Assembly: GCA_002269645.1 (NCBI GenBank)
Contig: NIVC01001122.1
Span: 1 to 64,000, forward strand
Reading direction: 5' to 3'
Length of the DNA: 64,000 bases
From: Macrostomum lignano
Taxonomy: Eukaryota
Part shown: positions 6,941-58,330 of the stretch, in pieces
Layout: every line of letters begins with the position of its first letter
Numbering within the stretch: the stretch's first letter is position 1
Program-made: the position numbers and the translations under genes
Notes under the pieces: model-generated
The model's input: only the letters and a program-made list of their open reading frames with translations
Told to the model about the DNA's origin: nothing
Database searches by the model: none

Positions 6941-8020
6941 TCAGGTGCTTTCAAGACGCATGATCACAGTCGGCCCAACGGCGGTGCTGCGTTGTCGCCA
7001 GCACTTTGGGAGCTGCAGCAGCCGCCTGTAGGCGGAGCGGAACTGCGTGCTGGACAGGGCATACACAAACGGGTTGACGGCGCTGTTGGCGTGGCTCAGC
7101 AGAATAGCGCCAACAAGCAGCTCGTACGGGTAGGTGCAGGCCTCCGAGCACATCAGGCTGACAGCGTTGAGGCAGTGCAGTGGCAGCCAGCACAGAAAGA
7201 AGAGAAGCACAACTACAGCGAGGCTCCTTGCTGCTCTGCGCTCGCTTAGTGAAAGCTTGCCTCCCTGGTTGCTATCGTTACTTCCAGCAGCGTCAACTGC
7301 AGTTCTATTGGCGGTACAGAACTCAGAATCGCCTCGTTGAGCTTTTACGCTTTCTATTTGAGCACTGGCTCTGCCTATGAGAGCTTTGAAGATGCAGCCG
7401 TACACAACGCCGACAACAAGCAGCGGAGGCAGGACGCACACGAAGAAGTTGAAATAAACCATGAAATTCATGTCGATGACAGCCACAAAGCTGCACTGAC
7501 CGTTGGCAGGAGGGCCCAGATTCCAGCCCATCAGTGGCAGGTTCCCAGCCAGTAGGCCTGCCAGCCAGGTCGCCAGGCAAATGATGGAGATCCACCGACT
7601 CGAGCTGAGACGCCGGTACCTCAGTGGCATGAATACGGCTGTGAATCGTTCCAGCGATATTGCCAGCATGCCGAATATGCTCACCTGGGTGAGGCTTACT
7701 ATTAAAGAGTTTAAAATTAGGCAGCCATTGAAATCATTTCTTGGAAAGCCATTCTCTGAGACCAGGGAGATGGGGATGGCCACGCTGCCAACTAGGAAAT
7801 CCGTAGCAGCCAGGTTGGCTACCAGGTAGTTGGTTGGCTTGCGCATGGCCGGGTTCAACATTACGACTGCCACCGTGAGAGAGTTGCCCGCGATGGCGGT
7901 GGCCGAGATGACCGCCTCCAAGGCGAGTCGGACAACGTTGAGGGCGCTCAGCGGTGAGGCTTCGGTGGAGCCTGGCTCGGTCCTGGTTTGAGCAGTTTTA
8001 GGACTTAAGACAGATCTCAT
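6941..8020 (-). CDS. Intronless class A GPCR, adenosine-receptor-like (359 aa)
   Basis: 7 hydrophobic segments; GN (TM1), LAATD (TM2), ERF (TM3), FNFFVCVLPPL (TM5), CWLPLH..N (TM6), LSHANSAVNPFVY (TM7). The last three closely resemble adenosine receptor motifs. Confidence 0.9.
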   Translation of the reverse strand: MRSVLSPKTAQTRTEPGSTEASPLSALNVVRLALEAVISATAIAGNSLTVAVVMLNPAMRKPTNYLVANLAATDFLVGSVAIPISLVSENGFPRNDFNGCLILNSLIVSLTQVSIFGMLAISLERFTAVFMPLRYRRLSSSRWISIICLATWLAGLLAGNLPLMGWNLGPPANGQCSFVAVIDMNFMVYFNFFVCVLPPLLVVGVVYGCIFKALIGRASAQIESVKAQRGDSEFCTANRTAVDAAGSNDSNQGGKLSLSERRAARSLAVVVLLFFLCWLPLHCLNAVSLMCSEACTYPYELLVGAILLSHANSAVNPFVYALSSTQFRSAYRRLLQLPKCWRQRSTAVGPTVIMRLEST

Positions 8021-25794: not shown

Positions 25795-26509
25795 CTAGCA
25801 ATAACCCTGCACCTCACTGCTGGGCCTGCGCATCGTGGGCATCCGCCTGATGAAGGCGCTCCGAGAGTTTGGCTCGTATCTTTCAAGCCGAGCGGAGCCT
25901 GTAGCAGCTTGGTAACGCTGTGAATTGCTGTTGGTCCGTCTGTTGCTACGGTTGGCAGCAACGACTCCGGCTGGTCGCTGCAGGTGACTTCCGCCTAGCT
26001 GCATCATCTGCTGCTGGTAGAACTGCTGCGATTCTGCTCGCCTGCGACGGTTGTCAAAAATTCGCTTCATCTGACTGCGGAAAAAGCTGCTGACGTAGGT
26101 GTAGAGAAAAAAGTTGATGCTGTAGGACAGGTGGTACAAAATCTTTGTCACATAGATTGCGCTGCCCACGTGGAACTGGTACAGGCCGTCCTTTGTATTC
26201 GCAAAGTATTTCGATTCGTCCAGCTTTGCACTGATTGTAAACTTGGTGACGAAGTTGGCCAGCCAGCACAGGTAGTAGGGCCAGGTGAGGACCAGGAAAG
26301 TGGCGGACACCAGGATCAGCAGCAGGGCAAACTGGTGACCGATAACGTCTTGGTTCGAACCCGACTGATTTCGACGGATCACCAGCAGGTGACGCGCGAT
26401 CAAGACGTTGAAAGTGAACAGCAGGCAGGTGGGGATGATGGTCAGCATGGCTGCGAAGATGGCGTCAAGTACGAAGAGCTGCCGTTTGAAACTGGGGCGG
26501 GGCACGCAT
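25795..26509 (-). CDS. Neuropeptide/FMRFamide-receptor-like GPCR, exon 3 (ECL2-TM5-TM7 and C-tail)
   Basis: Acceptor ...atcgccgcag| then (R)CVPRPSF...LDAIFAAMLTIIP...TFLVLTWPYY...LSYSINFFLY. Its phase matches the end of exon 2. Confidence 0.85.
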
Positions 26510-30462: not shown

Positions 30463-31177
30463 AGTAGAATGCATGAGGGGGCTTCTGGGACAAAATTTTT
30501 CACGTCCTCCATAATCCACCTAAATCCATCCATATTATCCCTGACAGAATCAGAAAAAAGGGGGGTCGCACTCGCTCCGAAAACGTCCTCCATAATCCAC
30601 CTAAATCCATCCATATTATCCCTGACAGAATCTTGAAAAAGGGGAGGGGTCGCACTTGCTTCGAAAACTTCGAACATAATCCTATTAAATCCATCCATAT
30701 TATCCCTGACAGAATCAGAGCATTATCCCTGACAGAATCAGAGCATAACAGTAGGACACCTGCTATGCTCACTGACACCGACATCCACCCATAGCATGTT
30801 CGAAACAATCAGAAAATAATCTGCATTCTTCTCCCCACATTCAATTTGCAAAGCGAAACCAGATCCCAAAGACTTTAAATCATCAGCGCAGGGTCCTTAC
30901 CCTTTGAAAAAAAATTAAATTCTCAATAAAAATGTTTCCAGTTGTCTCTCCGGGTTCTTATTACAAAGCGGACGAGCCTAATTACAAATCCAAGTACCGA
31001 TGCAAACTTGAATGCAGCGAGTACATGAGAAAATATTGGCCCGGCATGGATATCAATGTCCCTAATATTAATCAAGCTCTCCAAAGACTGGTTTCATAAG
31101 TATGGAGTAACCTACGTAAAAGATTACGACAGCTACTATAACTTTGCAGAAATCATTAAGCAATTGCGTTAAAAAAC
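30463..31177 (+). repeat. Left TIR of the Polinton (715 bp, with two extra ~82-bp internal units)
   Basis: Reverse complement of 50411-50960 except for a ~165-bp tandem expansion and a short divergent patch near 31088-31125. Confidence 0.93.
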
Positions 31178-31179
31178 CG

Positions 31180-31270
31180 AAAAACCAAAAGGCCAAAAGG
31201 CCAAAAGGCCAAAAAGGCCAAAAGGCCAAAAGGCCAAAAAGGCCAAAAGGCCAAAAAGGCCAAAAGGCCG
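31180..31270. repeat. (GGCCAAAA[A])n subterminal repeat
   Basis: Direct reading, immediately inside the left TIR. Confidence 0.9.
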
Positions 31271-31513
31271 AAATCTTTTGCATTTTGGCCTTCCCTCGAG
31301 ACGGAATTCTTCCTCGGCTGGGCTCAGTTAAAGTGAAAATCTCTCTCCCCCACGCGCGCTGCGCCCACACACATACACTCCCCTCTCCCCCGCGCACCCG
31401 ACGCCCGCGCCCACAAACTGTCAGAATGGGGTAAGAGATTTTGAGTACACATGCGCGCATTTTTTCATACCACTCTATTCTCTGCAAGCATACTTAAAAG
31501 GGAACGCATTTTC

Positions 31514-35342: not shown

Positions 35343-35638
35343 TGTTAGTCTAGGAAAACTGAGTCAAGTCATGTTTGCAAGCGAAGGAGAATACCATTGA
35401 AAGATCTCTACCGAAGTGACGAAAGTATTTATTTGACTACATAACACGAAACCACGTACATTAGTAGACAAACGCCATCCGATTGGCTGGGGGTTAAAAC
35501 CATGCACACTGGCAAGCACAAATGTACACAGGTAGGGGTAAAACGATAGCGCGCAAGAATGATCAGTCACGGGAGGGAGAGAGAGAGAGAGAGAGAGACA
35601 AGTGAAACAACATGAAAAACCAAAGTACAACCCCAACA
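35343..35638 (-). repeat. 3' LTR (296 bp)
   Basis: No difference from 39616-39911 found by eye; purine tract GGGGGGAGCAG immediately precedes it on the minus strand. Confidence 0.95.
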
Positions 35639-35691
35639 CTGCTCCCCCCAAAAGCAGCAAAACAAAAAACAAAAGAAACCAAGACCTGTCC

Positions 35692-37920
35692 TTAGACCTT
35701 ATAACAAACAGGTTTACGAGGCCGCAAATCATACGAGCTGTGGGGCTGGAGAGTCTTATCTCCAGAACTCAGCGGGGAGTCACAGTCAGTCGCCTCAGGT
35801 TCACGCAGCTCCGAGTCAGAGCCAGCCTTGGCACCCTGAATCGATAGCCCAGCCTGATCCTCGGATCCAGCCGCCTCGGTCAGCCGCCGATCGGCCTCCG
35901 CCTCCGGGCGGCAGCTCCATTGGTTTGCGTGCGCCATCCGCAGTCCACCGTCTGGTAGGTCAGCTGAGGTCACCAGAGCTGTGTTCCGGCCGTGCTGCAC
36001 GATGAACTTGGCCGGAACCGGAGCCGTGCCAGGCCGAGCCCTCAGCCAGATGGAGTCACCCACCTGCTCGGTCATCGTCAGCGGATGGCGCAGCCGGCGT
36101 CCCCACATGAGAATGTCCGGCGAGCTGGAACGATTCCCGCTAGGCCTGCTGGTGCGAATGGTTAGGAGCAATTTCTGCAGGAACTGGTCAAATGGGACCA
36201 CTTTCGTCCACGTCTTCAGCCCGCCTTTGAGACTCCTCACCAACCGCTCAGCCTGCCCGTTCGATGCCGGATGGTACGGTGGGGTGTGCATCTCCTGGCA
36301 GCCGACACTGTTCAGCCACTGCGAGACTCTTTCCGACCTGAACTCAGGCGCATTATCCGACACTAGCGTCCGTGGCACTCCATTTCTGGCGAACACCGCT
36401 CTCAGCACTCTCAGCACACTGCCCGCAGACCTGTCTGGGACCTGGACAGCTTCTGGCCAACCCGAGTATGCATCAGACAGCAACAGTAGCAAGCCCACTC
36501 CTGGCACCTCACAGTGGTCCATGTGGACCCGGGACCACGGCTCGCTCTCGGATGGCCAGATGTCAATTTTCCGCTGAACCACCGGCCGTCTTTCAGCGCA
36601 CAGCTGACACCGCTCAACAAACTGACGGACATCGCGATCCAGTCCAGGCCACCAGAACTCCTTAGACACATGGGCCTTCGTATTTTCCGCGCTCGGGTGC
36701 ACCTCATCATGCGCGGTCTCCAAAATGCGCCGCCGGAGAATGGTCGGAGGCACCACCCTGGTACCGTGGATGACCAGCCCGTTCTCCACAGACAACGCTT
36801 CCCGACACGCTTTGTACGGCCGCTCCAGCTGAGAGACCTGACCCCACCGGCCTGTCCTGATTCTCTGCTGGAGTCTTTGAAGCAGTGAACACCGGGAAGT
36901 ACTTTCTCTCAGCTCCTCCACGGTAACCAAGCCTCCGTCAGTGATCAACTCAGTCTGGTGAACCGACTCCGTCTCAGGATCGAGGTTTTCAAAGCTCAGC
37001 CTTGATAGAGCGTCAGCATCCTGCATCTTCTTTCCCGGCACATATTCAATCTCGTAATCATAAGCCGATAGCCGCAGAGCCCACCGGGTTAGTCTGGCAG
37101 AAACAGTCTTTGGAAGATTCTTGCAAGGATTCAGAATAAACTTCAAAGGCTCGTGATCGGTCTGCAGAATGAATTTCTTCCCTAGCAACATTTTCCGAGC
37201 TCGTTCAACCGCCCAAACAATAGCCAGCGCTTCTCTCTCGATGTTTGAATAGTTGGTTTCTGCCTGTGTGAGCGCCCTGGACATGAACATGACGGGATGT
37301 CCAGATTGGACCAGCACCGCGCCCAAGGACTTCTCGCTCGCATCAACTCGAAGACAGACAGGCGCGGAAACATCAAACGGCTTGATGCACGGGTTTGAGG
37401 CCAGACTCCTTTTGACCTCCGAAAATGCCGCCTCAGCCACCGCGTTCCATTCAAAGACCCGGTCACCGCGGCGAAGCTCCTGAAGAGGCCGACATTTCTC
37501 AGAAAAGTTTGGAACCAGCCGTCCATAAAATTGAGCCAGTCCTAGAAATCTCTCCAAATCTTTCTTGGTCTTCGGCACCTCGACATCCATCACACGTTTC
37601 ACCATGCCCGGATCGGGTTTTATTCCTTCATCATCAATAATGTGACCAAGAAACTTCAGGCTGTTGGCTTCCATCACGCACTTCGCCTCGTTGATCTTGA
37701 CATTTGCGGCCTTTAACTTGTTGAACACCTGCTCCCTAATTTTCTGCAACTCTGCCCGGCTTGCAGCACCGATCAGCACATCGTCCTGATATACTATGAC
37801 ACATGGATGGTCTCCCAGGAGCTTTTCCATCACACGTTGAAAAACAGATGGCGACACCTTAATGCCATACGGCAACCGGTTAAACCTGTAGCAACCAAAC
37901 GGAGTGTTTATGGTGGTCAC
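35692..37920 (-). CDS. pol: Gypsy pol: RT, RNase H, integrase
   Basis: RLPYG, YQDD, VDASEKSLGAVL, NYSNIEREALA, TDHEPL, ADALSR, HHCC zinc finger, D..SDNAPEF..SNGQAER. Joined to the upstream ORF by a single -1 frameshift near 37963. Confidence 0.95.
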   Translation of the reverse strand: MTTINTPFGCYRFNRLPYGIKVSPSVFQRVMEKLLGDHPCVIVYQDDVLIGAASRAELQKIREQVFNKLKAANVKINEAKCVMEANSLKFLGHIIDDEGIKPDPGMVKRVMDVEVPKTKKDLERFLGLAQFYGRLVPNFSEKCRPLQELRRGDRVFEWNAVAEAAFSEVKRSLASNPCIKPFDVSAPVCLRVDASEKSLGAVLVQSGHPVMFMSRALTQAETNYSNIEREALAIVWAVERARKMLLGKKFILQTDHEPLKFILNPCKNLPKTVSARLTRWALRLSAYDYEIEYVPGKKMQDADALSRLSFENLDPETESVHQTELITDGGLVTVEELRESTSRCSLLQRLQQRIRTGRWGQVSQLERPYKACREALSVENGLVIHGTRVVPPTILRRRILETAHDEVHPSAENTKAHVSKEFWWPGLDRDVRQFVERCQLCAERRPVVQRKIDIWPSESEPWSRVHMDHCEVPGVGLLLLLSDAYSGWPEAVQVPDRSAGSVLRVLRAVFARNGVPRTLVSDNAPEFRSERVSQWLNSVGCQEMHTPPYHPASNGQAERLVRSLKGGLKTWTKVVPFDQFLQKLLLTIRTSRPSGNRSSSPDILMWGRRLRHPLTMTEQVGDSIWLRARPGTAPVPAKFIVQHGRNTALVTSADLPDGGLRMAHANQWSCRPEAEADRRLTEAAGSEDQAGLSIQGAKAGSDSELREPEATDCDSPLSSGDKTLQPHSSYDLRPRKPVCYKV

Positions 37921-47529: not shown

Positions 47530-48567
47530 TTAATTAATTTCTGTGTCAGCTGGTATCACTAGGAGTTCAGCTCTAGTGAATGACCGCGTGGGGGATTTAG
47601 GGTTAAAGGCTTGAGATAAAAAGTAATACTCTCCAGAGTCGGATGTAAAATGTCTGTCTATTTTATGTACATCAAGGCTGAAGTATGGATCTGTAGCTCT
47701 TCTTTTGGTGTCTTTCTCTAGCTCTCCAGGTAGATATAAAAAGCGTAGAAACTCAGAGTTTGTCAGTATGTATGGTGATTCAACTCCTGGAAGCTGAGGG
47801 TAGTTCGAGGTGTGTTTTGTGTTGTGTGTGTTGTGTGGGGTTGTAGTGTTGTTGTCTGTTCTTTGAGTTGCCTTAAGTTTGACAGTGTCTTGTTTAATTG
47901 CATGGGACGGTTTCAATCCAGTCATACGTGTGACTTCATTGTTCAGTTGCTCTATAACAATGGGGAGTCTTTCTGTCCACTTGGTATAGTATTGCCCCGC
48001 ACTCAGTTTGAGTTCTTGCGCTGTCTGCTTTGTGAATAGTCTCTTGGCTAGAGTTAGATTGAATCTTTCCACAAAAGCCTGGTCTCTGTGCAAGTTTGTT
48101 CTGCCATAGCGAATCTCTGTGTTTTTCTTTTCCATAAGGGATTTCACTACACCCATGAATTCCTTACCCGGGTCGGTCATAAAGATTTGGGGGTATGTGA
48201 GCGGAGAGTTTTTATAAATATCTTGCAGTGCGCTGGCAACAACCTCTGACTTCTTCGTCTTGAGTGGGCGAGCTTCCTTATATCTGGAAGCAATGTCTAT
48301 TACTGTGAGAGCATACTTGTAGCCTGAGTCATTGGGGAGAAACAAAAGATCTGCTTGGTGCGCTTCATTAGGTTTATAGATGCTAAAGTGAGGTCTTGTA
48401 AATTTTACTGGTGGGAAATAGACTTGGTAGACTGCTTGCTTAGAGAGCCACTTTTCTACTTTAGCTTTTGGTTCCTTACTCAGCTCCATGAGTTTACTAA
48501 CGGCATTTTTGCCTACAAAGAAACCTTTGTCGCTGTAGTAGAGTTTTTTAAGTTTCTGATCTGTCAT
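47530..48567 (-). CDS. rve-family DDE integrase (345 aa)
   Basis: HQADL (D), VIDIASRY, TDPGKEF (D), VERFNLTL (E). Confidence 0.95.
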   Translation of the reverse strand: MTDQKLKKLYYSDKGFFVGKNAVSKLMELSKEPKAKVEKWLSKQAVYQVYFPPVKFTRPHFSIYKPNEAHQADLLFLPNDSGYKYALTVIDIASRYKEARPLKTKKSEVVASALQDIYKNSPLTYPQIFMTDPGKEFMGVVKSLMEKKNTEIRYGRTNLHRDQAFVERFNLTLAKRLFTKQTAQELKLSAGQYYTKWTERLPIVIEQLNNEVTRMTGLKPSHAIKQDTVKLKATQRTDNNTTTPHNTHNTKHTSNYPQLPGVESPYILTNSEFLRFLYLPGELEKDTKRRATDPYFSLDVHKIDRHFTSDSGEYYFLSQAFNPKSPTRSFTRAELLVIPADTEIN

Positions 48568-48597
48568 TTATTTAAAAAGAAAATTTTAAATAAAATA

Positions 48598-49086
48598 ATG
48601 CAGCGCTCTGGTGGTAAGTTAGATTCACATGGACTGATAGAAAAGCTTCCTCATCCGAACAAAGGCTGGACACTTCCCGGCTATAAATATTGCGGGCCTT
48701 TGAATCCACTTGAAATACAGCTAGATAAAAACAATAATCCACATCCTGGGCATGAGCCTGTGAACGAGCTAGACTCTGTCTGCATGTGGCACGACGTTAA
48801 GTATAGAGATTTTCCTGAGGAGAAGAATCGCTGGGACAAAGAAATGCTCAGGAGACTCGACAATATAGGGGCTTCAAGCGGATTTCGTGAGTCGATCGCT
48901 CGGAAGCTAGTTAAAGCTGTTATTTTTGGTAAAACAAAGTTGGGGTTGGGGGTGTACGCCGAGGGCGGGTGTTTGGGGAGAGAAGGTGGGTGCACGGGGA
49001 GAGAGGGAGCAGGGTTTATTTTGTGTGCTCCAAACGAGGTATTAGGAAGACTGCTGAAAGAGCTGGGGGTAGAGAGAGGCGCTTGA
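48598..49086 (+). CDS. Parvovirus VP1u-like phospholipase A2 (162 aa)
   Basis: LPGYKYCGP Ca-loop-like motif, PVNELDSVCMWHDVKY with the catalytic HD dyad, and downstream D (RWDKEM). Confidence 0.85.
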   Translation: MQRSGGKLDSHGLIEKLPHPNKGWTLPGYKYCGPLNPLEIQLDKNNNPHPGHEPVNELDSVCMWHDVKYRDFPEEKNRWDKEMLRRLDNIGASSGFRESIARKLVKAVIFGKTKLGLGVYAEGGCLGREGGCTGREGAGFILCAPNEVLGRLLKELGVERGA

Positions 49087-49234
49087 GTCGGGAAGGGCTT
49101 AACTATTATTCTCAGCCCTAGCCAAACGCAACAGCTGCATTTTGAAAAGTTGAGAAGCAGAAGGGGGGGTAACTGCTATTTTCTGAGGGAGCGCAAAGTT
49201 CCACGCGTGCATTCCTTTCCGCTTTGACAACCGG

Positions 49235-49814
49235 ATGGAAGGAAGCGGGTGGAGGGAATCGATCGCTCGGAAGCTAGTTAAAGCAAGCAAGAAAATTCAG
49301 CTTATTTCGCCCGCAAACGTTCTTCGTCACGCACGATACTGCACTGTTGTGGCTGCTGATTTCATTATGTTGTAAGTTTATTCATTTTTTTACTTTCTGA
49401 TAATCCTGTGGTAAGAATTGAAACATCTCTTATTTTGATTAAATCTTTGTTTTTAGTTCACAAAAAATTACGTTCTACTGGACCGACCTAGAAAATCTCC
49501 ATGGTCGCCTTGTTGAAGGATTAGATGCCAACGAACTGGCATCAGAGAGAATTCAAGAAGTTCTCCACAATTTATTCAATAAAAAAGTTGAGAACCAGCG
49601 AATTCGTTCCAGAGCGGCCGAGGAGACCCAGGTTCGCAACTATGCCATGAGAACCGAAATGGTGTTTGACGAACTTCGCCGATCATTTGTTGCTGATGAA
49701 GTTTCACTTCTTAGTTATCAACCATTTTTTCCAGGATTTTATCAATGTAAGCTACTCATAGTAGTCTTCGAAACACTTTCCTGGATCTCCAGGATTTTTT
49801 TCTGGATTTTTTAA
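49235..49814 (+). CDS. Predicted two-exon ORFan inside the Polinton: join(49235..49371,49457..49814), 164 aa
   Basis: ATG, GTAAGT donor at 49372, T-rich ...tttgtttttag acceptor at 49456. The phases join in frame to a stop-free stretch of ~120 codons lacking an early ATG. Confidence 0.6.
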
Positions 49815-50160
49815 ACTCGTGCCAATTCCTGACAATACAGGAATTCCTGAAAATACAGGAAAGTCTTTTACTGGATTTTTTTCCATGATTTTATCAATGT
49901 AAGCTACTCATAGTAGTCTTCTAAACACTTTCCTGGATCTCCAGGATTTTTTTCCAGGATTTTTTTTAAACTCGTGCCAATTCCTGACAATACAGGAATT
50001 CCTGACAATACAGGAAAGTCTTTTACTGGATTTTTTTCCATGATTTTATCAATGTAAGCTACTCATAGTAGTCTTCTAAACACTTTCCTGGATCTCCAGG
50101 ATTTTTTTAAACTCGTGCCAATTCCTGACAATACAGGAATTCCTGACAATACAGGAAAGT
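49737..50160. repeat. ~152-155-bp tandem repeat (about 3 units) containing short palindromes
   Basis: atcaatgtaagctac at 49741, 49893 and 50048; internal TCCTGGA-tc-TCCAGGA and TTCCTG-acaata-CAGGAA. Confidence 0.92.
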
Positions 50161-50410
50161 GCTGTTCACAAAATGACCGGGAGGAAAATCAATATTATTC
50201 TGGATCCGAAGAATATCGATTTTGGATTGTGCGAGGATCTACAATATCTTGTTCTTTCTCTACCTTCATTCATTTCCAGCCTTGCAACTAGCTTGCACGT
50301 CGCGGAAGAAAATTCTCAGCCGGATAGCCCTGCACACTCAGTGTCTGCTCTTTCCTCCTTATTTCCTCCTGTTTTATGTAAATATACTTGCGAATAAATG
50401 AACTCAGTAT

Positions 50411-50960
50411 GTTTTTTAACGCAATTGCTTAATGATTTCTGCAAAGTTATAGTAGCTGTCGTAATCGTTAATGACTACTCCATACTTATGAAACCAGTGT
50501 CTTTGGAGAGCTTGATTAATATTAGGGACATTGATATCCATGCCGGGCCAATATTTTCTCATGTACTCGCTGCATTCAAGTTTGCATCGGTACTTGGATT
50601 TGTAATTAGGCTCGTCCGCTTTGTAATAAGAACCCGGAGAGACAACTGGAAACATTTTTATTGAGAATTTAATTTTTTTTTCAAAGGGTAAGGACCCTGC
50701 GCTGATGATTTAAAGTCTTTGGGATCTGGTTTCGCTTTGCAAATTGAATGTGGGGAGAAGAATGCAGATTATTTTCTGATTGTTTCGAACATGCTATGGG
50801 TGGATGTCGGTGTCAGTGAGCATAGCAGGTGTCCTACTGTTATGCTCTGATTCTGTCAGGGATAATGCTCTGATTCTGTCAGGGATAATATGGATGGATT
50901 TAGGTGGATTATGGAGGACGTGAAAAATTTTGTCCCAGAAGCCCCCTCATGCATTCTACT
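50411..50960 (-). repeat. Right TIR of the Polinton (550 bp)
   Basis: Inverted match to 30463-31177. Confidence 0.93.
50416..50655 (-). CDS. TIR-encoded 79-aa Tyr/aromatic-rich ORFan (left-TIR copy 30932-31099 truncated to 55 aa)
   Basis: AAAAATG start like other element genes; stop falls 5 bp from the inner TIR edge. Confidence 0.5.
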   Translation of the reverse strand: MFPVVSPGSYYKADEPNYKSKYRCKLECSEYMRKYWPGMDINVPNINQALQRHWFHKYGVVINDYDSYYNFAEIIKQLR

Positions 50961-51980: not shown

Positions 51981-53702
51981 ACACATTTAACCATGCTTAC
52001 ATACGTACCTCGCTGCTTTGGTGGACATGCAATTGATGATTAGGTCCCAGATGGTTGGTCAACTTGAGATGGCTCAAGTTGATTAACTGACATTGACTCG
52101 ATCCTGTTTTAAATTTTACTCTTACGCTCGTATGTTCATCGATAGGTTCTTTTTTTTCTATTTGTCGAAATAGAATGTAACTTTGTTTCTTTTGAATTTC
52201 AAAGCTTAACGTGTGCGTCACTCAGGTACAATTTTGGCCACAGACAGTCTGAATTGAATTGTCTGTGGCCAAATCATCTGTTTCAATCTGTTTGAAACAG
52301 ATGATCTGTCTGTCATCTGCTTCAATAGAAAGGGACTTTGTTTGAATTGAACTTCCGCAACCGCTGATATTTCTTAAAGTGTTTGAACTGAAGTTCCGCT
52401 TGTTTCTTTTGAACAAGACTTTGTTCAAGATAGGAGGTAAAATGGTGTACCTGGTCCTTGTTACATTAAGCTGTAAGTGAAGTTTCGGTCTTGCTAAGGA
52501 CCTTGCAGTAGTTTTCGGCATTGTGAACTGTGGTCTTTTGAAAGCGAGCCGCAAAAACATACTCGTAAGCATTAAAGGATTAAGCATTATGCCGAAGCAT
52601 TAAAGTTGTGTCATGGAAGATCGGTAGGTGAGGAAACTCGTGGTGATGCGCCTGACGATGTCCGATTCAGCCGGAACGCGTTGCGAATAGTAGTTTTTGT
52701 CAGTTTTTAATTTATTCCTCTACTCTACGAGGTGGATTTCTACAGTTTCAAACAAACTTTACCGTAAATTTAAGGTACTGCGCCCTCTAGTACCTTTGAT
52801 CTTTGGTGCAGCAGTGCACTCTGATTCTAAAATTACCTTTCTTTTTCCCAGCGTGCATTGTTGTATGTAGACTTAAATTTAATGGGAGTCTCAATAGCAG
52901 GATTGAATCGGAAGTGAAAAATGTTTTAATCGAAGCAGTTTATTCAACGCTACCTCTTTCATTAGGAATTGGATTCTAACAACTGATTGATCTGGAGGCA
53001 GACTAGGCATTGTTTTCGTGAGAATTTATTGTTCTCACAGGCGAAAAATTGAAATCGCTATTCCACTCGAAACCTTGCATTTACTTTCCTTTCCTCCACT
53101 TTTATCCCGGATTTCTTTATGAGGCTCACTGCTTTGTGCACCTCTGTTTTCAATGCAGTGTTTGATTGCAACTCCAGTGCGGTAGTGAATCCCAAACCCA
53201 TTGATCAAGCATCTGACTTGATCTTGCAGCTAAAAGCTCTTTGATATAGAATTGCTTCTACATGTATAGGGGACGGTGATTTGTGTATTTTTGCATGCTC
53301 GTTTCTGAGTTCAATCTGTCATTTGTAGGTTTTTTAATCCCTGCGCGCAGACGATTGGACATCAAGAGTAGTTCAGTAGTCCTTGTTTTATTCCATGTAT
53401 GGCTTGCGACAGCGCTGTGCCGCCGTGCTAATTAAAAGTATAACTTGCCCATAATTAACTTATTTTCTAGCACATTACAAATATAATATATTTGACTTTT
53501 AATTAATCTTTTACGGCATCTTTAATCCTTTAAATTGCCAACATGAGGTCGTTACAGGGCCTGCATATTCTGGCTATTTAGATTAGAACACTGGAGCAGA
53601 TGCCTAAAGATCGCACTCTTCCGCGCGTTCGACCTAAAGGCGTCCTGCAGACGGTGTTTGAAGATATCAGCTAAAAAAGCGCATCTTAGTGGAACTACTC
53701 AC

Positions 53703-54165
53703 CAACGTATCTCTCCACTGTGGAGGTGACCAGCAGCCACACGGACACCATTCTGGACGAATAAGAGAAGAACAGGCGCAGCTGGCAGGCTATCTGGGTG
53801 TACAGCCAGTCGCGGGACCAGTCCGGCAGCAGGGTCTGCTTCTGCAGCCAGTCTGGCGCTACGTAGAACAGCAGCACCAGCAGGTCGGCCCCAGCCAGCG
53901 CGGTGAAGTAAGCTTTAGCCGACTGGTTGGCGGTCTGGCGCCTGGTGAACACCAGGATGCAGAGGCCGTTGCCAATGCAGCCAATCAGCAGCACGAAAGG
54001 CGTCACCGCAGTGAAGATGTACTGGCTCAGTGCAGCGCTGAGCGCCGTCGGATGCACCAGCGGGGCTATCGTAGCGTTCGAACTGTTGTAGAGTCCATCG
54101 CCCTGTGCGCTGGAGTTTCCGCACTGCAGTATGCTGCAGAGAAAATCCTTGTCCAGCACTTGCAT
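53703..54165 (-). CDS. Neuropeptide/FMRFamide-receptor-like GPCR, exon 1 (N-terminus to TM3); full protein ~440 aa
   Basis: N-glycosylation sites, GCIGN (TM1), LAGADLLVL (TM2), C..., VERYV then G|GTGAGT donor. Splicing to exon 2 gives ERYVGVRNPL. Confidence 0.88.
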
Positions 54166-57061: not shown

Positions 57062-58330
57062 ATGGATCTCATTTACACGTCGGACTCAGAAGACAAATGG
57101 AGGAAGAACACGAGTGTCACCAAGCTATCGAAGGGACGGACGACAGGCCCACGGCTGTCACAGAGTTCATGGGCACCCCAGGTTTTCGGCCGGATTGGGT
57201 ACCACCACAATCAGCGAATGGCAGTGAGTCAGAGTTTTTGCACCATAACCTAACCGACGAGCTGTTCGAGAACATTGCGAGGTGGACGAACGAACACGCC
57301 TGGAGTTTCGCTGAGGAAAGGTCAGCTGATGAGTTACCAAAGGTTGTGTCTACATGGAAGGATTGCAGTTTTGACGAGGTGAAGAAGCTGATCGGCATCG
57401 TGTTGCTTATGGGCATTGATGACAAGCCGGAGATCAGCTCATACTGGGCAAAGGATCCTGTGTACCACTGCACGTTTCTGGCTCAGCCACATTCACTTTC
57501 GCGCGATCGTTTCAAGCAGATTCTCTCCTGCCTTCTCTTTTACAGTAGCGCTGGTCCCGCTCCTCAAAGCCCTGTGGACAAAATCTCTCCATTCCTTGCT
57601 CTTGTGCAGCACGCCTGTCGGAACAACTACATGCCCGATCAGAATCTATCAATTGACGAGACTCTGGTCATGTACAAAGGACGGGTACAGTTTAGGCAGT
57701 ACATTCCCTCTAAGAAGAGCAAGTATGGTATCAAGTTATACTGCCTGTGTGAGGCCAAGTCCAGATACCTGTGGAACTTTGCCGTTCACACAACGCAGCA
57801 GGAGAATGGCAGGTTTGGTGCCGGACTGGACTGTGAGGCCCTGTCCTTTAGTGAGCGAGTCGTAGCCGAGCTATGCGCGCATTCTACATCTTGGCCATCG
57901 CATCTTCACCGACAGCTGGTTTACATCGTACCGACTGGCTTCGTGGCTACTAGCCCGCGACACCATGCCGACTGGCACCGTGCGCAAAGATCGTGGACCG
58001 CCGCCACTGCTGCGAGACACTAACCTGCACCCTACATCATCAGCATTCGCAAGGTGTGGCAACGTGCTGACGTGCAACTTTGTAGACTCCAAGAACAGTG
58101 GCAAGAAGACTGTGTACTTGCTGGACACGGCAGGTAACGCGCAGTGCCACGATGTGGCCCGCATTCGCCCTGGTGGTCAGCAGCAAGTGATGGCGAAGCC
58201 GGTCAGCATCACCACGTACAGTCGTTGTATGGGTTGAGTGGACCGCATGGACTCTAACACGAGTCCCTACATACCGCAAGTCGCTGCGCTGGTTCAACAA
58301 GCTCTTGGCACTTGTTTCGTGGTGGCTGTT
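57062..58330 (+). pseudogene. Degenerate piggyBac (PGBD4-like) transposase
   Basis: MDL..SDSED start; MSRDRF-like SLSRDRFKQI; LSIDE; RQYIPSKKSKYGIKLY; frameshifted FTDSWF; TGTVRKDR; MG*VDRMD with an in-frame stop. TTAA-bounded ends not located. Confidence 0.88.

Follow-up and report, generated by a model that had tools for sequence, protein, structure and literature searches.

A candidate decayed cargo gene with an intron in the variable arm of a Macrostomum lignano Maverick

The locus and its host element

The window, a 64,000-nucleotide stretch of Macrostomum lignano DNA (assembly GCA_002269645.1, contig NIVC01001122.1, positions 1 to 64,000, forward strand), carries a Maverick/Polinton element. 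The locus described here occupies 1.3 kb near the right end of that element, from the stop codon of a PLA2 gene (49086) to the right terminal repeat (50411). The original prediction for this locus was a spliced accessory gene of 164 aa, partly built from a segment of the PLA2 gene. It had every position right: the ATG, the 137-nt exon, the donor, the 85-nt intron, the TAA, the 26-nt copy, and the further sites at 49747 and 50279. The element and its right-hand genes are as follows.

30463-50960, unstranded: Maverick/Polinton (adintovirus-like) element, with ends AGTAG...CTACT
35343-39911, gag/pol-like ORFs on the minus strand: nested element, with two direct repeats of 296 nt that are 100% identical
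47058-47513, minus strand: protein-X ORF of 151 aa, unfused to PLA2 (PF05829, E 8e-7)
47530-48567, minus strand: retroviral-type integrase gene (PF00665, E 2.6e-8)
48598-49086, plus strand: parvovirus-type PLA2 gene, open frame (PF08398, E 1.2e-13)
50411-50960, unstranded: right terminal inverted repeat, whose left arm is 30463-31177 (blastn)

Between the PLA2 gene and the terminal repeat, and within the PLA2 gene itself, we distinguish the following features.

48876-48917, plus strand: PLA2 segment (codons 94-107) homologous to the PLA2-derived piece by sequence comparison
49235-49237, plus strand: ATG of the original prediction, present only in the window's copy
49243-49284, plus strand: PLA2-derived piece, 42 nt at 86%, exact over 49259-84
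49367-49371, plus strand: second in-frame ATG plus 2 nt, followed by the donor (judged by frame, A at -3 and phase 2)
49372-49456, plus strand: probable GT-AG intron, 85 nt, 24% GC, with GTAAGT at 49372 and AG at 49456
49457-49724, plus strand: coding remnant with homology to the first 79 residues of the protein P0009 and a predicted long helix
49725-50160, plus strand: tandem repeat of ~155 nt, 2.9 units, standing where the remainder of the gene would be
50280-50401, plus strand: possible third exon of the original prediction, with AATAAA at 50393 and without P0009 homology

A perfect 6-nt target-site duplication, CAACTG (30457-62 and 50961-66), flanks the element, and its terminal inverted repeats, with AG...CT ends, are 97% identical over 506 nt and 100% identical over the outer 94 nt (blastn). 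These repeats and the duplication are the features by which we assign it to the Mavericks. Pfam matches within it are rve, Peptidase_C5, Pox_A32, Adeno_PX, Phospholip_A2_4 and a DJR-like capsid; PF00665, PF00770 and PF04665 exceed the Pfam cut-offs, and the double jelly-roll capsid (PF21738, E 8e-5) falls under its own. Integrase, double jelly-roll capsid, adenain-type protease and packaging ATPase together we count as the Maverick gene set.

The element is damaged, interrupted by the nested element and with its polymerase region spread over four frames. Minus-strand ORFs at 43094-46933 have polymerase-B-like motifs and presumably represent a protein-primed family B polymerase; Endonuclease_7 is the sole Pfam match there. 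The four overlapping frames of this region (395, 546, 185 and 220 codons) reflect either decay or an assembly error. The nested element resembles a very recent Gypsy-type LTR retrotransposon. On the host side of the window, we take minus-strand ORFs at 6941-8020, 25795-26448 and 53695-54165 to have rhodopsin-class receptor-like motifs, and 57097-58023 (plus strand) to be a piggyBac-type transposase remnant, again from motifs. An exact-sequence lookup of seven window proteins in the protein collection found none of the seven.

Tandem arrays of 8 nt (31162-31278) and 21 nt (39911-40141) occur elsewhere in the element, the former adjoining the left terminal repeat and comparable to the 155-nt array near the right one. 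The left terminal repeat also contains, at 30481-30716, three copies of an 81-84-nt subunit, of which the right arm has fewer. The arm between the terminal repeat and the integrase is poorly conserved, and related copies are hypervariable at 48950-49340, just past the conserved PLA2 core, where indels and loose ends are numerous and stretches have been replaced.

For sister alleles we used contigs of four runs (X1, X5, X6 and X17) aligned to 48500-49870. Such contigs show presence, not absence, and carry no strand, and three of the four runs are RNA by guess only. Parts of the stretch were present in 20 of 24 listed runs, none recorded as RNA. The contigs gave 93 variants and 19 indels, of which 40 and 12 were listed, and 85 loose ends fell outside the listing; statements below that depend on them say so. 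Cover is interrupted at ~49330-49465 in X5, at 49144-49327 in X6 and over 49723 in X1, gaps to which we attach no evidential weight. Letters private to the window may reflect errors of assembly, differences between strains or mutations in this copy.

Exon 2 reads as coding sequence and has one relative

The proposed exon 2 continues the frame of exon 1 and has no stop for 118 codons, up to the TAA at 49812-14. Such openness is mildly unusual: a stop-free frame of at least 123 codons arose in 11 of 300 shuffles. An exhaustive phmmer search of 1.84 billion representatives returned a single relative, P0009 (E 2.9e-7), and the stretch is thereby no longer the ORFan it had been called. P0009 is an unnamed protein of 224 aa found only in Logan, on four contigs, the longest of 1537 nt. 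Residues 11-88 of exon 2 align to residues 1-78 of P0009 without gaps, with 33 of 78 identical (42%).

Sister alleles bear on the same question. Among the variants listed, amino-acid changes between window and contigs fall in nine codons of the coding remnant, eight of them alignable to P0009. At those eight sites, again among the variants listed, the residue of P0009 is that of the contig in five, that of the window in one, and neither in two. With a chance of 29/551 per change of hitting the P0009 residue, five of eight has P ~2e-5; a sign test on five versus one alone is not significant (P 0.11). Because the contig residues match P0009 at five of eight sites, the proposed frame is the true one and this copy has drifted from its family. 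On the strength of the homology and of these allele residues, exon 2 is genuinely coding in the frame originally proposed for it.

Its present state is another matter. The synonymous share of the exon-2 changes is near the random rate and does not point to present-day selection: synonymous changes number 4 of 14 in exon 2 (~22% expected at random) and 10 of 15 in PLA2 among the variants listed, a difference that is not significant once the repeat codon is removed (4 of 13; Fisher, P 0.13). None of the five other frames of the stretch shows an excess of synonymous changes. Among the indels listed (12 of 19), 49457-49722 has one, of 3 nt, and the intron and upstream DNA have indels of 1, 2 and 4 nt.

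Other searches, made with the exons taken separately, added little. Exon 2 had no match in Pfam, the ESM Atlas, a word-indexed protein search or NCBIfam, and one weak match in PHROG (E 0.1). P0009 had no usable match in Pfam (E 0.079), the ESM Atlas (best 0.87), PDB sequences (E 0.64), PHROGs or NCBIfam. A search for further P0009 relatives of 123-392 aa found none, nor did viral or metagenome contigs yield loci related to PLA2 or P0009. Single-sequence folds were poor and all-helical (exon 2, pLDDT 62.7 and pTM 0.30; P0009, pLDDT 39.4), and a BFVD fold search returned nothing at E <=0.001, which is uninformative; the models are of low confidence.

A probable intron and a likelier start codon

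The 85 nt between the proposed exons are 76% AT; their GC content is 24%, and that of the exons on either side 47% and 43%. Splice motifs by themselves are unremarkable in this Maverick, where nine donor/acceptor pairs lie 60-120 nt apart, counting both strands, some of them opposite intact ORFs. The acceptor at 49456 is needed to translate the conserved part of exon 2, which has no in-frame ATG until 49647 and whose frame is closed by stops immediately 5' of it; in X1 record 8, for which all 12 differences were listed, none creates a start. X1 record 6 (49366-49467) has five substitutions and one insertion, all within the intron, and keeps donor, acceptor and ATG 49367 intact, a weak indication with so few changes. 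We regard the intron at 49372-49456 as probably genuine.

The 137-nt exon 1 proposed to precede it runs from ATG 49235 to 49371. That ATG is missing in all seven covering contigs: 49236 is G in the single X1 contig and in six of six X17 contigs (X5 and X6 are without cover). One X17 contig has, in addition, a 2-nt deletion at 49334, inside exon 1. The G and the deletion both break the long model, and a model starting at ATG 49367 is touched by neither. This second ATG lies 5 nt from the donor, is unaltered in X1 record 6, and sits 12 codons ahead of the position that matches P0009 residue 1. It is the likelier natural start, rather than ATG 49235. Neither the start codon of the original prediction nor, in one contig, its exon-1 frame is kept in sister copies.

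Among the joints listed for the four runs, 49371^49457 does not occur; a first exon as short as ~18 nt could easily escape notice in contigs. By a 31-letter rule, the acceptor is bridged unspliced by X6 record 31 and by X17 records 13 and 14, and the donor by X17 record 12. X6 record 31 covers 49354-49763 and is unspliced throughout. Its end at 49354 lies 23 nt past a minus-strand AATAAA (49377-49382), and may mark either the 3' end of an antisense RNA or the start of a plus-strand one.

The acceptor might also serve a different first exon. Exon 2 would then be joined to an exon beyond 48500-49870 or to a trans-spliced leader, and the window's exon 1 would be uninvolved. The two X1 contigs listed for exon 2 do start close to the acceptor, record 7 at 49456 and record 8, which has six unaligned letters, at 49462, and no joint to any donor in 48500-49456 occurs among the joints listed. 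But nearby allele differences can end contigs, and contigs cannot reveal RNA ends, and we think this arrangement rather unlikely. We keep ATG 49367 and the donor at 49372 as the preferred beginning of the gene.

The PLA2-derived piece is probably a recombination scar

The PLA2 gene next to the locus keeps its YCGP and HD motifs and has eight homologs at 56-65%. At its start (48598-48619) is a 6-residue insertion relative to those eight homologs that contains a donor-like GGTAAGT; two letters of the insertion vary between contigs, and no joint from the GGTAAGT occurs among the joints listed.

Within the proposed exon 1, 49259-84 is an exact 26-nt copy of 48892-917 in identical frame, far above chance (500 shuffles gave no exact repeat longer than 14 nt). 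5' of this exact part, three synonymous codons and one Phe/Trp difference set the piece apart from the adjacent gene. Residue 96 is Trp in eight of eight PLA2 homologs and in the piece, and Phe in the adjacent gene. The copying from PLA2 that had been proposed is therefore real as to the segment, 42 nt at 86%, but its Trp is that of the family, unlike the Phe of the gene next door.

In one X5 contig, PLA2-like letters stand directly upstream of 49243 (10 of 12 matching 48864-75), a loose end suggesting that a sister PLA2 with piece-type sequence exists. The piece is probably a recombination scar from the PLA2 of a sister element. Its source may instead have been the adjacent gene itself at an earlier stage; recombination is the simplest reading for either source. 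Alignment to the PLA2 profile starts at 49220 and places R-x-D-N in register ahead of ATG 49235, so that this ATG may lie inside the scar, a suggestion to be weighed with the poor nucleotide identity there. A decayed ~184-nt tandem array joining 48876, 49060 and 49243 was also considered and rejected, 156 of 300 shuffles having reached each flanking score.

The piece is in frame and followed by no stops down to the donor, which by a rough estimate has a chance of <1 in 10 if neutral. It is conceivable that exon 1 with its PLA2 helix codes across the subfamily, entered from an upstream start or exon, and that the fusion predates this copy. The frame is in fact open for 62 codons, from 49187 to the donor, a span that takes in the profile alignment and its in-register R-x-D-N. 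Yet no other ATG was found in 49087-49234, contigs differ by indels of 1, 2, 3 and 4 nt at 49140-49165 besides the 2 nt at 49334, and no joint with splice-type ends leads into the stretch among the joints listed. We give this reading little credence, and prefer to see the piece as a scar in DNA upstream of the start.

A tandem repeat stands at the 3' end

Homology to P0009 ends at ~49724 (residues 88-89), and the ~155-nt repeat begins at 49725. Because the homology stops where the repeat starts, the gene is truncated at its 3' end. P0009 residues 80-224 (145 aa) were sought in the window with no convincing match (best other E 0.24). The repeat supplies the last 30 codons of the 164-aa product along with the stop at 49812-14. 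At 49770, all covering contigs of the four runs have a stop-making letter, and so do the second and third repeat units in the window; the collapse of repeat copies may be partly responsible for this reading. The further splice sites suggested for a third exon exist, GTAAGC at 49747 and, after a pyrimidine tract, AG at 50279, but the donor belongs to the tandem repeat, which has one identical GTAAGC per unit (49747, 49899 and 50054). An X1 contig continues the repeat ungapped into 50158 onward, at a loose end compared by eye.

The 3' end also weighs on the 164-aa protein as a working spliced accessory product that begins with a PLA2 helix. That model draws on the presence of every signal in matching phase, on the in-frame piece and stop-free exon 1, on the three synonymous codons and Phe/Trp that separate the piece from the adjacent PLA2, and on an exon 2 that is genuinely coding. 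But a sister PLA2 donor would yield the same synonymous pattern; the ATG is absent in seven of seven contigs, one contig has the 2-nt exon-1 deletion, the joint is absent in four of four runs (contigs proving presence, not absence), the 49770 stop intervenes, and about two thirds of P0009 (residues 80-224) is missing, the C-terminal 30 residues coming from the repeat. As a working gene built from a PLA2 peptide, the original prediction is very improbable. A functional 164-aa PLA2 chimera is unlikely, and the chimera looks like a chance reading of one decaying copy.

Interpretation

We think that what survives here, in the variable arm that separates the terminal repeat of the Maverick from its integrase and PLA2 genes, is probably a decayed cargo gene that was once spliced. 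The ancestral gene would have consisted of ATG 49367, the 85-nt intron, exon 2 and a 3' part now lost. Host machinery would have transcribed it, and the host spliceosome would have removed the intron. Its product would have been a helical protein, 224 aa long or longer, from a family of which exon 2 encodes the first third. A subfamily of the element would carry the gene, which would now be decaying in this copy. A sister element, through recombination or template switching, may have left the PLA2 scrap in upstream DNA that is normally untranslated; a point change private to this copy would then have created ATG 49235, in frame by accident, and the 164-aa chimera would be a by-product of decay.

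Two extensions are more speculative. The role we favour for the ancestral protein, though tentatively and with doubt, is that of a non-enzymatic accessory whose long N-terminal helix would have served oligomerisation or the binding of a host partner. It is improbable, though imaginable, that the locus records gene birth by assembly of scraps, in which a PLA2 scar, a new ATG, a truncated exon and a repeat tail would yield a spliced, translated 164-aa protein, the related exon-2 allele perhaps being a host-adopted gene of the helical family. Very improbable is a stretch wholly dead, with the intron unspliced in every copy and any RNA due to read-through or antisense transcription, for which the unspliced X6 record 31, the minus-strand AATAAA and the near-neutral substitutions might be cited, but the frame is preserved in the allele that has a 3-nt insertion (records 8, 22 and 31), an allele with residues in common with P0009, and contigs carry no strand.

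Relation to known elements

Intron-bearing cargo is already known from Mavericks, and the locus is most likely a broken member of that kind; the protein family here is undescribed. In nematode Mavericks, intron-bearing cargo genes lie between the terminal repeat and the integrase, and the elements show signs of recombination with one another (10.1101/2022.07.12.499685). The cargo genes wasp and krma described there resemble the present locus in position, in low conservation between copies, in signs of recombination and, given the probable intron here, in having an intron inside an element whose core genes are intronless (10.1101/2022.07.12.499685). The nematode arm spans 2-5 kb, whereas the arm here extends ~1.3 kb past PLA2 and is not GC-rich; and, unlike wasp and krma, the cargo here is truncated and without a Pfam or NCBIfam match (10.1101/2022.07.12.499685). 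P0009, for its part, runs 145 residues further than the window's exon 2, with 42% identity over the 78 that they share.

PLA2 genes are standard in adintoviruses (PMC8502044). As with the PLA2X protein described there, a parvovirus-type PLA2 here accompanies integrase, capsid, protease and packaging ATPase; unlike it, the protein-X domain occupies its own ORF (47058-47513) and is not part of PLA2 (PMC8502044). In the main text of PMC8502044 the string 'splic' does not occur, nor is a PLA2-derived piece described. A literature search, supplements aside, found no description of the locus, the protein family or a PLA2-derived exon.

The locus extends the intron-bearing cargo of the Maverick variable arm to another element and to an unannotated protein family. 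Tracks based on ORFs overlook such a gene, a point of use in annotating Mavericks. It also illustrates how the variable arm is reshuffled, with a scrap of PLA2 that probably came from a sister element, and with the 3' end of a gene overwritten by a repeat.

An exon-2 allele in the contigs

A single sister allele of exon 2 may be transcribed, which we give as a lead, contig depth being unable to prove it. Depth in X1 is 444 over exon 2, 41-79 over exon 1 and 60 over the intron, values that are one figure per contig and by which the parts cannot be ranked. The allele with a 3-nt insertion in 49457-49700 dominates the three runs guessed to be RNA, which come from three studies, and is the minority in X17. 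At 49535, one exon-2 allele accounts for 389.5 of 421.6 in X1, 18.3 of 18.3 in X5, 30 of 30 in X6 and 44.2 of 239.3 in X17.
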